Below are positions 6,017 through 15,110 of a DNA stretch of 64,000 bases, piece by piece (within the stretch, counting starts at the first letter, position 1; every line of letters begins with the position of its first letter). Source of the DNA: Deinococcales bacterium (GTDB lineage: Bacteria; Deinococcota; Deinococci; Deinococcales; JAAFIG01). The notes beneath the pieces were generated by a model, which searched no databases, was not told the origin of the DNA, and saw nothing but the letters and a program-made list of their open reading frames with translations. Location of the stretch: contig JAYWGM010000094.1 of NCBI GenBank assembly GCA_043778225.1, positions 32,001 to 96,000 of the forward strand, written 5' to 3'. The position numbers were made by a program, and so were the translations under genes.

Positions 6017-6328
6017 GTGAACGTCATCGCTCCAAAAGCCATTCGGGATTTTGTGCAGCGTTACCCAGAAGCCGATGAAGTGCTGCGCGATTGGTACAAC
6101 ACGCTACGAAAATCCGAGTTTCAAAACTGGGCAGAACTTAAAGCCACCTTCTCAAGCGCTGATGTCATTCCTAACCAACAAAGTGGTTTACTGGTGATTT
6201 TTGACATTGGTGGAAACAAATACCGCGTGGTGGTCAAAATAGATTTACAAAGCAACTTTGCCATGATTCGTCATATTTTTACCCATCTTGAGTACACCAT
6301 TTGGAATAAAAAAGGAAAACCCTCATGA
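6017..6328 (+). CDS. higB: HigB-family toxin
   Basis: L.DWY...FDIGGNKYR...TH.EY pattern. Confidence 0.9.
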   Translation: MNVIAPKAIRDFVQRYPEADEVLRDWYNTLRKSEFQNWAELKATFSSADVIPNQQSGLLVIFDIGGNKYRVVVKIDLQSNFAMIRHIFTHLEYTIWNKKGKPS

Positions 6329-6723
6329 ATATCTCGCAAGCCCTTGAGTCGTGGACAGGATTATACAGCGCCAACATTCGCAAACCCGAAAGCGAACATC
6401 AGTACCTTGAATTGCTCGAGTTTATGAATCATTTGACTGACCATTACAACACCGACCTCGAGCCACACCGAGGACTTTGGAATTTAGTGGCACAGTATAT
6501 GTTTGAATGGGAACAAGCCAACGAACCAAAAATCCCTGAATCCGAACCGCATCAGATTTTACAATTTTTGATGCAGCAACACCACTTAAAAGCAAAAGAT
6601 TTCAAGGATGTGATAGACCAGAGTCTACTCTCAAAAATCTTATCGGGCAAACGAAAAATTAGTAAACACATGGCTCAGATTTTTGCGAAACGTTTTGATA
6701 CATCACCAGCCATGTTTTTATGA
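6325..6723 (+). CDS. higA: HigA-like HTH antitoxin
   Basis: LQFLMQQH...LSKILSGKRKIS XRE-type HTH; overlaps toxin stop. Confidence 0.88.
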   Translation: MNISQALESWTGLYSANIRKPESEHQYLELLEFMNHLTDHYNTDLEPHRGLWNLVAQYMFEWEQANEPKIPESEPHQILQFLMQQHHLKAKDFKDVIDQSLLSKILSGKRKISKHMAQIFAKRFDTSPAMFL

Positions 6724-11763: not shown

Positions 11764-11837
11764 GATTTCAAAATACGTTCTTGGTAGGAAGGATTCAAGG
11801 GCGAACACGACGTTTTGAGCAGATGGTGGTTTTTTTG

Positions 11838-11875
11838 CTCGAGACACGCTTTCAGGCTTTAAGCCAAGGCTCGAG
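11838..11875 (+). repeat. CTCGAG-capped direct repeat, copy 1
   Basis: CTCGAG-ACACGCTTTCAGGCTTTAAGCCAAGG-CTCGAG. Confidence 0.9.
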
Positions 11876-11908
11876 AATGATAAGGATACAAGTACAGTCT
11901 TGAATCTA

Positions 11909-11937
11909 TTGTTATGTGTAACGATATACGTTATAAT
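11909..11937 (+). promoter_or_regulatory. Sigma70 promoter with palindromic TA operator
   Basis: TTGTTA-N17-TATAAT, with TAACG-N5-CGTTA palindrome; ATG follows at 11943. Confidence 0.7.
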
Positions 11938-11942
11938 TCAAT

Positions 11943-12236
11943 ATGATTATCGGGTTTCGTAATTCTGGGACAGACGATATTTTTAATGGATTGGATACAA
12001 AAGCCGCTCGAGCAACCTGCCCAGAAAATATTCTTCGGGTTGCACGACGAAAACTTGACCAGATAAACCAAGCTATTGACTTACGGGATTTGTTCGCACC
12101 GCCGGGTAATCGTCTCGAGCCACTAATCGGAAATCGGTTAGGGCAACACAGTATTCGTATTAACGAGCAATTTCGGATTTGTTTTATCTGGACTCAAAAC
12201 GGTGCGACAGACGTAGAAATAACGGATTATCATTAA
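11943..12236 (+). CDS. higB: HigB/RelE plasmid-killer family toxin
   Basis: ARRKL..I...PPGNRLE.L.G...GQHSIRIN.QFRICF.W...DVEITDYH. Confidence 0.93.
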   Translation: MIIGFRNSGTDDIFNGLDTKAARATCPENILRVARRKLDQINQAIDLRDLFAPPGNRLEPLIGNRLGQHSIRINEQFRICFIWTQNGATDVEITDYH

Positions 12237-12257
12237 GCAAAAAAATAAGGAGTTAAA

Positions 12258-12566
12258 ATGCGAATTCCAACCAACCGAACCCCAACCCATCCAGGCGAAA
12301 TGTTACTCGAGGATTTTCTTGTGCCACTCGGCATGACCCAACAAGATTTAGCCCAGCGATTACACGTTTCTTATCCACGAATTAACGAATTAATTCATGG
12401 TAAACGTGGTGTAACTCCAGATACAGCTTTGCGTTTAGCCAAATTATTTGGCACAAGCCCTGAGTTTTGGTTAAACGGGCAATTGGCATGGGATTTATTT
12501 CAAGCCATGCACTCAGCAAAAATGCTTGGAGTGGCAGAAATCCAGCCGCTCGAGCAGATGGCTTAG
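12258..12566 (+). CDS. higA: HigA (VapI) antitoxin
   Basis: HPGEML.EDFL..., RG.TPDTALRL..., FWLN.Q..WDL. Confidence 0.93.
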   Translation: MRIPTNRTPTHPGEMLLEDFLVPLGMTQQDLAQRLHVSYPRINELIHGKRGVTPDTALRLAKLFGTSPEFWLNGQLAWDLFQAMHSAKMLGVAEIQPLEQMA

Positions 12567-12569
12567 TTA

Positions 12570-12605
12570 CTCGAGACACGCCAAAGGCATAAGCCGAGGC
12601 TCGAG
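12570..12605 (+). repeat. CTCGAG-capped direct repeat, copy 2
   Basis: CTCGAG-ACACGCCAAAGGCATAAGCCGAGG-CTCGAG. Confidence 0.9.
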
Positions 12606-12610
12606 TAAGT

Positions 12611-13045
12611 TTACTTCGTATCAAGCAACTGCAATACTTGTGAAATTTTCAAGACTAAAAGTTTTTCACTTGGATTCACCAAACTCTGATACAAATCTTG
12701 GGTATTTTGTGAAACCAGCCAATCGGCTTTATTTTTAATCGCAATCCCAATAATCCAATCATCATCAGCGTCAGGTGAACGTTTCCCCATTCGACGATTA
12801 GCAACAAAGACCGCCCGTTGTCGCAAAATCAGCAACAAATCCTCTAAATCTTCGAGTGCAATGTATTGTCGTGCATCTCGAGTTTGAAAATACTGTTGCA
12901 CAACCCCAATCAACTCTTCGATTTGCAAAGCCGATGTCAGCAGCACAAAACGTTTCATTCGCCAAAAGTACATTAGGCGTTTTGCGCCAACACCACCGAG
13001 CAAAAACGAAACGTAAACATTGGTGTCAAAAACGACTTGGAGCAT
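12611..13045 (-). CDS. PIN-domain (VapC/PIN_3-like) toxin
   Basis: VVFDTNV, E.L, D.DD.., VS.N..DL. Confidence 0.9.
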   Translation of the reverse strand: MLQVVFDTNVYVSFLLGGVGAKRLMYFWRMKRFVLLTSALQIEELIGVVQQYFQTRDARQYIALEDLEDLLLILRQRAVFVANRRMGKRSPDADDDWIIGIAIKNKADWLVSQNTQDLYQSLVNPSEKLLVLKISQVLQLLDTK

Positions 13046-13260
13046 TAACCACGACGATAATTTTGCACAGCCATTACTGCTAACATATCGGCTTCGTCAT
13101 CAGGCATGGAATCTTTACCCATCAGACGGTCAAAAGCAGCTTCGGTCTTAGCGATAACCAACAATCTTTCTATGGCTTGGGAAGTGTTAAGCCCATACTG
13201 CATTTGATACGCCTCGAGTTGAGAAGCAATTGGTTGCTCGAGTTGAAGAGTTCGTAACAT
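13045..13260 (-). CDS. Putative antitoxin
   Basis: Small ORF translationally coupled to PIN gene; TACAAT-N6-ATG start at 13260. Confidence 0.7.
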   Translation of the reverse strand: MLRTLQLEQPIASQLEAYQMQYGLNTSQAIERLLVIAKTEAAFDRLMGKDSMPDDEADMLAVMAVQNYRRG

Positions 13261-13283
13261 ATGGGCATTGTAGCAGAGTTTTA

Positions 13284-13320
13284 CTCGAGACACGCCAAAG
13301 GCTTTAAGCCAAGGCTCGAG
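13284..13320 (+). repeat. CTCGAG-capped direct repeat, copy 3
   Basis: CTCGAG-ACACGCCAAAGGCTTTAAGCCAAGG-CTCGAG. Confidence 0.9.
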
Positions 13321-13372
13321 AATAGTGTGAGGGATGAGAATATGGTTGAAAAGATTGAGGTTAGGCTGTCTA

Positions 13373-13780
13373 TCAGGTAAAAGAGATATTATTTTTTGTT
13401 AGCACCCTCTTTAATTCACTTTCTAGTAGCGCCCTATTTTCGTATAACGCAATTATGAAAAAACCACTTTTGCTTTGATTAGTTTTTGTACAATACAAAG
13501 CGTCTGATTTATCTTCAAAACCGTCAACTTGAATAACATTGGTGAAAAACACTTTTCTTTTGAAAATTAATGTTCTAATTGCAATATAATCATCATGTAT
13601 CTCAAGGGTGTTAGTCAAAATTGTGCTGCAACCAATTATAGTTGCAAAAATACCTAAAGGAATCATGTGATCAACTTGAGTAGAATCAGCAGTGAAATAG
13701 TAAATACTGCCACCTAAAGTAATAACTAGAGTCAAAAAAAAGAAGAAAATCTTCACTGATTTTTTAGGGCTAAATTTCAC
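13373..13780 (-). CDS. Hypothetical 2-TM membrane protein (AT-rich, possibly bPH-like)
   Basis: Two TM helices then a beta-rich domain; visibly AT-rich. Confidence 0.65.
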   Translation of the reverse strand: MKFSPKKSVKIFFFFLTLVITLGGSIYYFTADSTQVDHMIPLGIFATIIGCSTILTNTLEIHDDYIAIRTLIFKRKVFFTNVIQVDGFEDKSDALYCTKTNQSKSGFFIIALYENRALLESELKRVLTKNNISFT

Positions 13781-13835
13781 TTATTGCTCCTAGAGTTGCC
13801 TTGGGTGGGAATTTACCCACCCATTCCAAATTATT

Positions 13836-15110
13836 TTATTTCTTCGCAGCCTCGAGTATCACGCTCTCGAGAACATCGGCGGCAAATTTGGCATCTTCGG
13901 CTGTCAGCACAAGCGGCGGCGCGAGGCGTATGGCGTGGCTGCCAGCGCCAAGTAATATCAAGCCTTTCTCGAGGGCAAGTTTTTGTACCATATCGCGCAT
14001 TTCTGGGTTCTCGAGCTTAGAAGTGGCATCTTTGACAAATTCGAGTCCAATCATTAAACCGCGTCCGCGCACATCGCCGAGTTCTGGCACTCGAGCTTGC
14101 ACGGCTTTCATGCGCTCAAGCAAATACGCGCCTTGCACATTGGCATTTTCCATTGCGCCATTCTCGAGAACATCCAGTGTGGCTAGGGCGGCGGCGCTCG
14201 AGACGGGGTTGCCGCCAAAAGTTGTGCCGTGTGCGCCCGGTCCCCAAGTTGAAATGCTGTCTTTGAACATCACCGCGCTAATTGGGTAGCCACTTGCCAA
14301 GCCTTTTGCCAGTACCACAATGTCTGGCTTGACGTTATCGGCTTCACAAGCTAGGAATTGCCCAGTGCGCCCAACGCCTGTTTGCACTTCATCGGCAACC
14401 AACAAAATTCCGTGTTTGTCGCAGACTTCGCGCAGTTGGCGCATAAATCCGACGGGTGGCACAATGTAGCCGCCTTCGCCTTGGATTGGTTCGACAAAAA
14501 TCGCGGCGACTTCTTCGGCTGGGGTGGTGTGCTTAAATAAATACTCGAGATGCTCGAGTACCATTTGGCTGGTGCGCGGGTATTTATATGGCTGTGGGTA
14601 CGGTGCATGAAACACACCCGGCACGAGGTTGCCAAAGCCTTTGCGGTACTTAGACACACTAGCGGTTAGGCTTAACGCGCCCATGCTGCGCCCGTGGAAA
14701 CTGCCTGTGAACGCAATGTAGTACGGGCGTTTGGTGTGATACCGTGCTAATTTCATGGCGGCTTCGATGCCTTCTGTGCCAGAATTGCCAAAGAAAACAC
14801 GATAATCCTCACCGACGTGTTTTTTGAGGCGTTCGGCAAGTTCAATCTGAGGCTCGGAAGCAAAGACCGCAAAGCACAAATGCTGCACTTTGGCAGCTTG
14901 TTCTTGGACAGCTTTGACCACGGCTGGGTGAGCGTATCCCGTGGTATTAACGGCAATTCCAGCCATCATGTCTAAAAATTTATTGCCGTCTAAGTCGGTC
15001 AGCCAGCAGCCCTCTCCGTGCGATACAACCATCGGAAAAGAGACTGCATTGGAGGTGCTTAAAGAATTGGCATAACGTTCGAGTATTGCTTTTGATTTGG
15101 TAAAATCCAT
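13836..15110 (-). CDS. Class III PLP aminotransferase (ArgD/GabT-like)
   Basis: NSGTE, FHGR, EPIQGEGG, DEVQTG.GRTG, AKGL, GTTFGGNP. Confidence 0.95.
   Translation of the reverse strand: MDFTKSKAILERYANSLSTSNAVSFPMVVSHGEGCWLTDLDGNKFLDMMAGIAVNTTGYAHPAVVKAVQEQAAKVQHLCFAVFASEPQIELAERLKKHVGEDYRVFFGNSGTEGIEAAMKLARYHTKRPYYIAFTGSFHGRSMGALSLTASVSKYRKGFGNLVPGVFHAPYPQPYKYPRTSQMVLEHLEYLFKHTTPAEEVAAIFVEPIQGEGGYIVPPVGFMRQLREVCDKHGILLVADEVQTGVGRTGQFLACEADNVKPDIVVLAKGLASGYPISAVMFKDSISTWGPGAHGTTFGGNPVSSAAALATLDVLENGAMENANVQGAYLLERMKAVQARVPELGDVRGRGLMIGLEFVKDATSKLENPEMRDMVQKLALEKGLILLGAGSHAIRLAPPLVLTAEDAKFAADVLESVILEAAKK

Follow-up and report, generated by a model that had tools for sequence, protein, structure and literature searches.

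In a 64-kb stretch of a Deinococcales genome (the window; G000:C94:32001-96000), a repeat of 36-38 nt, R, delimits a chromosomal stack of small toxin-antitoxin (TA) modules. We interpret R as a boundary scar that also acts as portable short homology within this stack, i.e., the array would have grown and been rearranged without a dedicated integrase, a reading that we hold with slightly better than even confidence. It builds on the repeats themselves, on modules that vary with the species, on missing integron features and on the generality of repeat-flanked modules in the same genome. The source genome G000 is a metagenome bin (4,029,277 bases, 107 contigs, 89% complete, GC 48.7%). G001-G007 denote its congeners and C plus number a contig of the named genome. 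Every genome compared is a metagenome bin, and contigs of such bins tend to break at repeats; contig ends lie close to arrays in the case of the G003 array, the G007 locus and the G001 contigs.

The first-pass annotation had placed three co-oriented repeats of 36-38 bp at 11838, 12570 and 13284. All three are confirmed, on the plus strand and with spacings of 732 and 714 nt (Table 1), and they are flanked by divergent, convergent and co-directional genes, respectively, as it had claimed. Shuffles yield a chance expectation of 0.00 for the full R pattern in the window. A degenerate pattern search of the 4,029,277-base assembly returns exactly these 3 sites, and the reverse strand and the control pattern give 0 each; neither blastn-short on G000 nor an unfiltered profile search of the window finds a further full-length copy. 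With 3 copies at a single locus of G000, R is set apart from common dispersed elements, as had been proposed, and a dispersed REP-like element is ruled out. The only IS200/IS605-type Y1 transposase gene of G000 (on C28) is unrelated to R and has no R-like flanks, which rules out an IS200/IS605 or RAYT link and separates R from REP/RAYT systems.

The two R-flanked modules measure 0.69 kb and 0.68 kb, and their gene content is a toxin and an antitoxin only, i.e., HigBA and a PIN-domain toxin with a 71-aa partner that matches no Pfam or NCBIfam family. Orthologues of the PIN toxin in G001 and G003 are 94% identical. The earlier claim of one TA module per interval, each with its own promoter, stands for both modules and for the higB promoter; the PIN promoter is read from the sequence only, as a candidate extended -10 element (TGCTACAAT) a few bases upstream of ATG 13260. 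Beyond the third copy, the segment 13321-13835 (515 nt, GC 0.326, CTCGAG 0) carries an orphan gene with just 4 close relatives. It is followed by an aminotransferase gene, and the right flank of the array is marked by AATGGTGTG... A hairpin between the two genes, as judged from its sequence, is likely the aminotransferase terminator.

We built a profile from 17 copies of R and ran it against 19 genomes from this family. Strong matches are limited to G000, G001, G003 and G005, all of them in arrays and on one strand throughout within each array. There are 3 copies in G000, 4 on C456 plus 1 on C314 in G001, 5 on C106 in G003, and 3 on C178 (one weak) plus 3 on C585 in G005; in the arrays of G000, G001:C456 and G003:C106 the co-oriented copies are spaced by 422-872 nt. 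The profile has no match in G002, G004, G006 and four other genera. Weak hits on G003:C64, G005:C476, G007:C407 and G000:C80 were attributed to chance on inspection, being partial and in some cases within coding sequence; the only match in G007 reaches 19.2 bits. We do not claim a decayed copy downstream of ftsZ in G000 (4.3 bits, E 5.9). In a pattern search of 41 genomes of the order, real copies appear in G001 and G003 only, and the other hits carry one mismatch and occur at about the frequency of a reversed-pattern control. Public metagenomes, scanned with the right two-thirds of R, gave 3 isolated chance matches that lack the left half and lie in unrelated DNA of GC 0.49-0.69, and a scan of viral contigs gave 0 matches.

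Wherever gene and array share a contig, i.e., in 3 of the 4 R-bearing genomes, the array is found beside the same aminotransferase gene, on its downstream side; the orthologues beside the G001 and G003 arrays are 96% identical as proteins. The modules between the repeats differ in the four genomes (Table 1), which bears out the variable cassettes that the first-pass annotation expected for this locus. Given variable modules and a non-dispersed repeat, the array is fairly described as a product of tandem accretion, with the site regenerated by every module that is added. The observed module orders cannot be derived by deletion alone from one colinear ancestor unless a module was duplicated. Contigs assembled from an independent 2025 freshwater metagenome run (X3) show two further variants: in one, the end of a 113-aa-like gene is joined via R to higBA, and in the other 13329-13834 is swapped for 477 unrelated bases that reach right to the stop of the aminotransferase gene. 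The 113-aa and 126-aa proteins of the G003 array match no Pfam or NCBIfam family, i.e., 'RelE-like' and 'Gp49-like' are unconfirmed guesses by inspection.

The left flank of the array is not conserved. The left-hand genes of the window adjoin, in G003 and G005, a peptidase gene that is found on another G000 contig. A DUF1905 gene adjoins ftsZ in G003 and G005 (L108:240-300; L109, reverse complement) and the R array in G001 (L034:413-446). There, homology of G001:C456 with the ftsZ-DUF1905 spacer of G003 and G005 stops immediately past a shared CTCGAG, and the G001 array therefore sits at a rearrangement breakpoint. A second R locus is present on G001:C314, where higBA followed by R (22.5 bits) lies between yigZ and an orphan gene adjoining ftsZ; on the upstream side of higBA, a higA-end remnant accompanies a degenerate R (11.8 bits, E 0.025). 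To the left of the G003 array lies an ~80-nt element with a GC-rich hairpin (L033:12973-13055, reverse complement of 53-134 of G003:C106), of which copies are present on at least 6 G000 contigs. This dispersed element probably caused the G003 contig break.

Modules and flanks differ in their degree of conservation. Identity amounts to 97.5-98.7% for the MazF module (G001, G003 and G005 compared) and to 95.3% for the PIN module (G001 vs G003), compared to 91.2% for the adjacent aminotransferase gene. As the MazF module is closer than the neighbouring aminotransferase, these identities suggest that modules were recently exchanged between species. TA modules contain 2.9-6.3 CTCGAG per kb at a GC content of 0.42-0.47 (the 56-aa module of G001 and G005: 0-2.6 per kb, GC 0.48), i.e., they carry the CTCGAG signature of the genome and would therefore be old residents of the lineage. 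We also compared five segments that follow the last R (window 13321-13835; L034:2292-2661; L033:9404-9923; L042:1352-1704; L056:2956-3874). All are different, with 0-1 CTCGAG and a GC content of 0.33-0.38, and the end segment of G000 is replaced by unrelated DNA in G001, G003, G005 and run X3. By its composition, the slot beside the aminotransferase stop seems to be where recently imported DNA lands.

R itself measures 36-39 nt across copies, and the alignment of 17 copies has a mean column identity of 86%. The right-hand ...AGGCTCGAG, CTCGAG included, is invariant in 17/17 copies, while the left CTCGAG cap shows five variants that are all C-to-T (CTTGAG x4, TTCGAG x1); deamination of a methylated C or asymmetric constraint could produce this pattern. 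The central 8-9 nt vary among copies (e.g., AAAGCATA, AAGGCATA, AAGGCTTTA). CTCGAG is observed 433 times in the window vs 8.56 expected and 24,877 times in G000, where the next commonest palindromic hexamer reaches 2,854 (about nine times fewer); we found no literature on CTCGAG as a highly iterated palindrome. The caps noted in the first-pass annotation are present but far less distinctive than they seemed, and R is therefore defined by its 24-26-nt interior plus the caps. In one copy on G005:C585 (L043:3276-3312), AAGCCGAGG has changed to AAACTCGAGG, which creates an extra CTCGAG within the repeat and is a small live example of a CTCGAG-multiplying process.

Some copies of R extend beyond the core, on the left into the end of higA. 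A long form starts within the last higA codons (12549-12566), at a third CTCGAG, and the respective sequence, (CTCGAG)CA(A/G)ATGGCTTAG, precedes the leftmost copy of three arrays as well as the copy after the true higA. As in the window, a CA(A/G)ATGGCTTAGG remnant lies left of the leftmost R in the G001 and G005 arrays. On the right, an AATRGYGTG extension follows about half of the copies, i.e., left and right extensions differ from copy to copy. In crossover mapping, the left part of R (positions 8-11) tends to track the module upstream of it, and the right part that downstream, with too few copies to fix the point. As single-stranded DNA (ssDNA), R folds weakly (-5.9 to -7.1 kcal/mol), chiefly via its CTCGAG caps; the consensus fold has -5.8 kcal/mol with a compensatory change in 0/10 pairs. 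A structured RNA or ssDNA element is ruled out by this weak fold without covariation, and 0 Rfam families match the arrays of the relatives and the paralogue locus of the 56-aa module.

R is one case among several in G000. A direct-repeat scan of this genome for short repeats spaced by 250-2000 nt, with modules assigned via Pfam, yields at least 9 other loci at which small modules lie between locus-specific direct repeats of 34-76 nt (Table 1). Several of these repeats duplicate a gene's start, e.g., that on C48 the start of an aldehyde dehydrogenase-like gene (identity read from its first residues). The C32 repeat (72147-72900; L078, L094) is bracketed by CTCGAG and bounds variable module arrays in five congeners (L095, L096, L098, L100). 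From these loci, insertion with long target duplication seems to be widespread in the G000 genome as a whole. The same process is seen with unrelated repeats at many loci and is therefore independent of one recognition sequence. The R array is a serial case of such repeat-flanked module insertion.

Table 1. Features of the R array in the window, composition of the R arrays in four genomes, and further repeat-flanked modules of G000. Positions without contig refer to the window; arrays are given as order of elements.
Feature	Position	Strand	Remark
higA-3'-end-like remnant (TTTGAG-CAGATGG...)	11814..11837	+	abuts R copy 1 on the left; judged by eye against the true higA end 12549-12569
R copy 1	11838-11875	+	38 nt, 'TTT' variant, profile score 35.3 bits
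higB promoter-like site TTGTTA-17-TATAAT	11909..11937	+	10/12 matches; conserved upstream of higB in G001:C314
higB toxin, 97 aa	11943..12236	+	PF05015, E 2.1e-12
higA antitoxin, 102 aa, HTH_3	12258..12566	+	PF01381, E 2.3e-12; left extension of long R made up of the last codons (12549-12566)
R copy 2	12570-12605	+	36 nt, profile score 50.1 bits
PIN-domain toxin, PIN_3, 144 aa	12611..13045	-	PF13470, E 4.2e-14
Putative antitoxin, 71 aa from ATG at 13260	13045..13260	-	overlaps PIN start; orthologues start at the same Met
R copy 3	13284-13320	+	37 nt, profile score 45.6 bits
Right extension AATAGTGTG	13321-13329	+	directly after R copy 3
Orphan membrane-protein gene, AT-rich	13373..13780	-	variable end segment of array; no family match
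Hairpin after aminotransferase stop	13802..13823	-	read from sequence; kept in G003 and G007, absent in G001
Class-III aminotransferase	13836..15110	-	PF00202, E 4e-126; conserved right-hand anchor of array
G000 array			membrane-protein gene, R, higBA, R, PIN-antitoxin, R, orphan 1, aminotransferase
G001 array, left	G001:C456		DUF1905 gene, R, 56-aa tail-anchored basic protein, R, PIN-antitoxin, R
G001 array, right	G001:C456		84-aa protein + MazF/PemK (PF02452), R, orphan 2, aminotransferase
G003 array, left	G003:C106		dispersed repeat, R, PIN-antitoxin, R, MazF, R
G003 array, right	G003:C106		RHH-like 97 aa + 113 aa, R, 126 aa + HTH antitoxin, R, orphan 3, aminotransferase
G005 array	G005:C178		113-aa-like gene end, R, 56-aa gene, R, MazF, R, orphan 4
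G005 array	G005:C585		gatB, R, internally deleted PIN-antitoxin, R, RHH + 113 aa, R, ...
36-nt repeat	C32:72147		PIN + partner between copies
57-nt repeat	C80:62698		duplicates a gene's start; ParD/ParE between copies
Three repeat copies	C40:11096/12983/14121		XisH/XisI and PIN between copies
72-nt repeat	C44:75812		two PIN genes between copies
37-nt repeat	C27:30397		XisI/XisH between copies
49- and 46-nt repeats	C81:1544 and 2228		PIN between copies
56-nt repeat	C91:11839		two small genes between copies, one with weak HTH match
36-nt repeat	C48:18861		100% identical; Schlafen/AlbA_2 gene between copies
49-nt repeat	C75:46761		100% identical; module without assigned identity
Flanking direct repeats	C101:135015/135923		further locus

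Given a stack without dedicated integrase, we propose the following course. R would at first have been the sequence just after higA, whose last codons are held by the long form. Entry of a module at this point would have duplicated the ~36-nt junction, such that each module came to lie between two R copies. Via these direct copies, ordinary recombination or single-strand annealing might then delete, reorder and swap modules, and after DNA uptake R-mediated swaps could be possible between species as well. The stretch from the last R to the aminotransferase stop would form a separate landing zone for imported, AT-rich, CTCGAG-free DNA. As the lengths of the R extensions vary between copies, they fit 'long and variable' target duplications as Furuta et al. 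2010 (PMC2853133) define them.

Several observations weigh against this course. A single R between intact flanks is seen in no relative: rearrangements affect the left flank throughout, including G001, G003 and G005, the aminotransferase gene of G002 and G006 is followed by unrelated genes without R, and the G007 contig stops ~100 nt past this gene. Clean empty sites are likewise lacking for the repeat-flanked modules on C80, C32 and C48 of G000, whose flanks are rearranged in the relatives. As no empty site was found, the target duplication is inferred rather than shown, and so are the enzymes involved. Furthermore, the 36-nt unit is reused in register up to 5 times and recurs at a second locus (G001:C314), i.e., random duplication would need a site preference. 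The invariant right half, the co-orientation and a 13-8-13 geometry would also fit a real recombinase site, and with incomplete bins (89% for G000) the gene of such a recombinase could be unassembled. Finally, G005 has a contamination of 4%, and its two array contigs could stem from two strains.

Along these lines, R might be a lox/FRT-like site of ~34-36 bp, with an asymmetric centre between two imperfect inverted arms, at which a tyrosine recombinase of the host (e.g., Xer-like) moves modules as circles, that is, a non-attC 'mini-integron'. Integrase-less site clusters (CALIN) are common for true integrons (PMC4889954), and a sharp-edged uniform unit in 17-19 copies, all co-oriented and with the right half invariant in 17/17, is what one would expect of such a site. 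So are the 13-8-13 layout, in which 9/13 positions are complementary, the shuffled module order and the occurrence of one module plus R at a second locus. We nevertheless consider this unlikely. Without the caps, the interior of R is not palindromic (at most 4/8 complementary), the fold is weak and lacks covariation, and the central 8-9 nt differ between copies, which would hinder strand exchange by a tyrosine recombinase. Other G000 loci bound like modules with quite different repeats. The first-pass annotation had seen no recombinase in the window, which held for the 66 open reading frames (ORFs) scanned, and had suggested a check for co-occurring recombinases; none was found to track R. G000 has three tyrosine recombinases (one core Xer-like, two phage-type integrases) and no serine recombinase. 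We tracked two of these across the genus: the 350-aa Xer-like gene is present in 8/8 congeners, which speaks for a host enzyme, but these equally include four without strong R match, and relatives of the 451-aa phage-type integrase (32-46% identical) are found in genomes with and without R.

A different role for the caps is conceivable, i.e., CTCGAG could be a break-and-join point, through staggered breaks or microhomology joining, such that the interval from CTCGAG to CTCGAG is duplicated. It is found at both ends of R in nearly all copies, a third one opens the long form, the homology between G001:C456 and the ftsZ-DUF1905 spacer ends right after one, and that of the 56-aa module to its G000:C2 paralogue begins at one. 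With one CTCGAG per ~160 nt, some such coincidences are expected. Outside R, 3 of 28 direct-repeat boundaries lie at CTCGAG vs 1.2 expected, which is not significant, and the two youngest duplications (100% identical) have no CTCGAG at their edges. The CTCGAG-directed recombination raised in the first-pass annotation gains no support from the wider boundary test, and we regard it as quite improbable at this locus. It is even harder to credit that R is a cis element needed by each module, e.g., an insulator, operator or weak terminator, with recombination uninvolved. The module-bounding C32 repeat, as read from its sequence, does look like an intrinsic terminator on the minus strand (7-bp stem + T run). 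R, in contrast, has no T run, its fold of -5.9 to -7.1 kcal/mol lacks compensatory changes (0/10 pairs), it is found between divergent, convergent and co-directional genes, and the promoters lie inside the modules; moreover, the same element on unrelated modules would be left unexplained.

The integron-like capture system proposed in the first-pass annotation is not supported. A search with NCBIfam TIGR02249 for IntI (cut-off 265 bits) in the R genomes G000, G001 and G003 gives 0/3 genomes above the cut-off (best 56.9 bits). An attC core pair (RYYYAAC/GTTRRRY) is found in 0/19 R copies when +/-60 nt are searched on both strands, in line with the absence of attC-type ends stated there. attC sites are roughly 57-141 nt long with the core sites R'' RYYYAAC and R' GTTRRRY, and they form imperfect hairpins of conserved structure that carry extrahelical bases; R, by comparison, has 36-39 nt, a weak hairpin and no covariation. 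Likenesses to integrons and CALIN do exist, i.e., co-oriented, array-specific repeats around single small cassettes, content that varies among relatives, TA cassettes with their own promoters in either orientation, and no nearby integrase. CALIN are defined in PMC4889954 by at least two co-oriented sites separated by cassettes, and this arrangement is found in the R arrays. Among the literature matches listed, titles and abstracts describe no integron in Deinococcus.

Variable genes between conserved genes, swapped by transformation and homologous recombination, have reportedly been described by Saunders and Snyder as minimal mobile elements of Neisseria. The R array would share with these the exchange of genes between conserved chromosomal genes without dedicated enzymes; unlike there, only the right flank (aminotransferase) is conserved, and internal repeats separate the modules. 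The pdif modules of Acinetobacter plasmids (Mindlin et al. 2019, PMC6449649) are similar as well: units of ~0.7-3 kb, including a 768-bp TA module, are shuffled via short sites and have no recombinase of their own. However, pdif sites have 28 bp (11-6-11) with palindromic inner arms and inverted module flanks, while R has 36 nt, all its copies are direct, the array is chromosomal, and the best 11-(6 to 8)-11 layout in the consensus reaches 7/11 complementary positions.

For long-target-duplication insertions, Furuta et al. 2010 (PMC2853133) report repeats that often span a stop or start codon and include a Thermus case. The R array likewise has repeats >30 bp around a unit without mobility genes, a span of a stop codon and variable length. 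Small selfish units are common to both; examples of such insertions come from naturally transformable lineages and from Thermus, and G000 itself contains several single-insertion cases. The differences lie in the cargo (TA pairs here, restriction-modification genes there), in the serial reuse of the 36-nt target in 3-5 copies within an array that differs among four species, and in the lack of an empty site that would prove the duplication. Among the literature matches listed, titles and the beginnings of abstracts gave nothing that describes a repeat-bounded TA cassette array like this one.

Two side observations concern other modules. The 56-aa module protein (L034:483-868, L042:257-642) has a very basic N-terminus, a C-terminal membrane helix and a multi-hairpin leader; the module has no Pfam or Rfam match, and the protein could be a small membrane toxin. 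Its paralogue on G000:C2 (L060:3956-4126) has no R and lies beside a polymorphic-toxin-like region. Within the window, a second TA pair (6017-6720; HigB_toxin PF09907 and a 132-aa partner without family match) separates the ATPase gene from the permease gene of an ABC transporter of the iron-siderophore type; here, a flanking repeat is not obvious by eye.

TA modules are regarded as mobile, and their movement without recombinases of their own is poorly documented. If R were a recombinase site after all, it would represent a new cassette-capture system, i.e., a non-attC 'mini-integron' of Deinococcota, and in a bolder variant the CTCGAG caps, a word hyper-abundant in the family, would be the actual cleavage and joining points. 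The genus offers a natural series from single modules with 100% identical duplications via two- and three-copy arrays to an array of 3-5 copies that differs in four species. Such a series suggests a route to integron-like cassette stacks in which modules are inserted without an integrase and with long target duplication.

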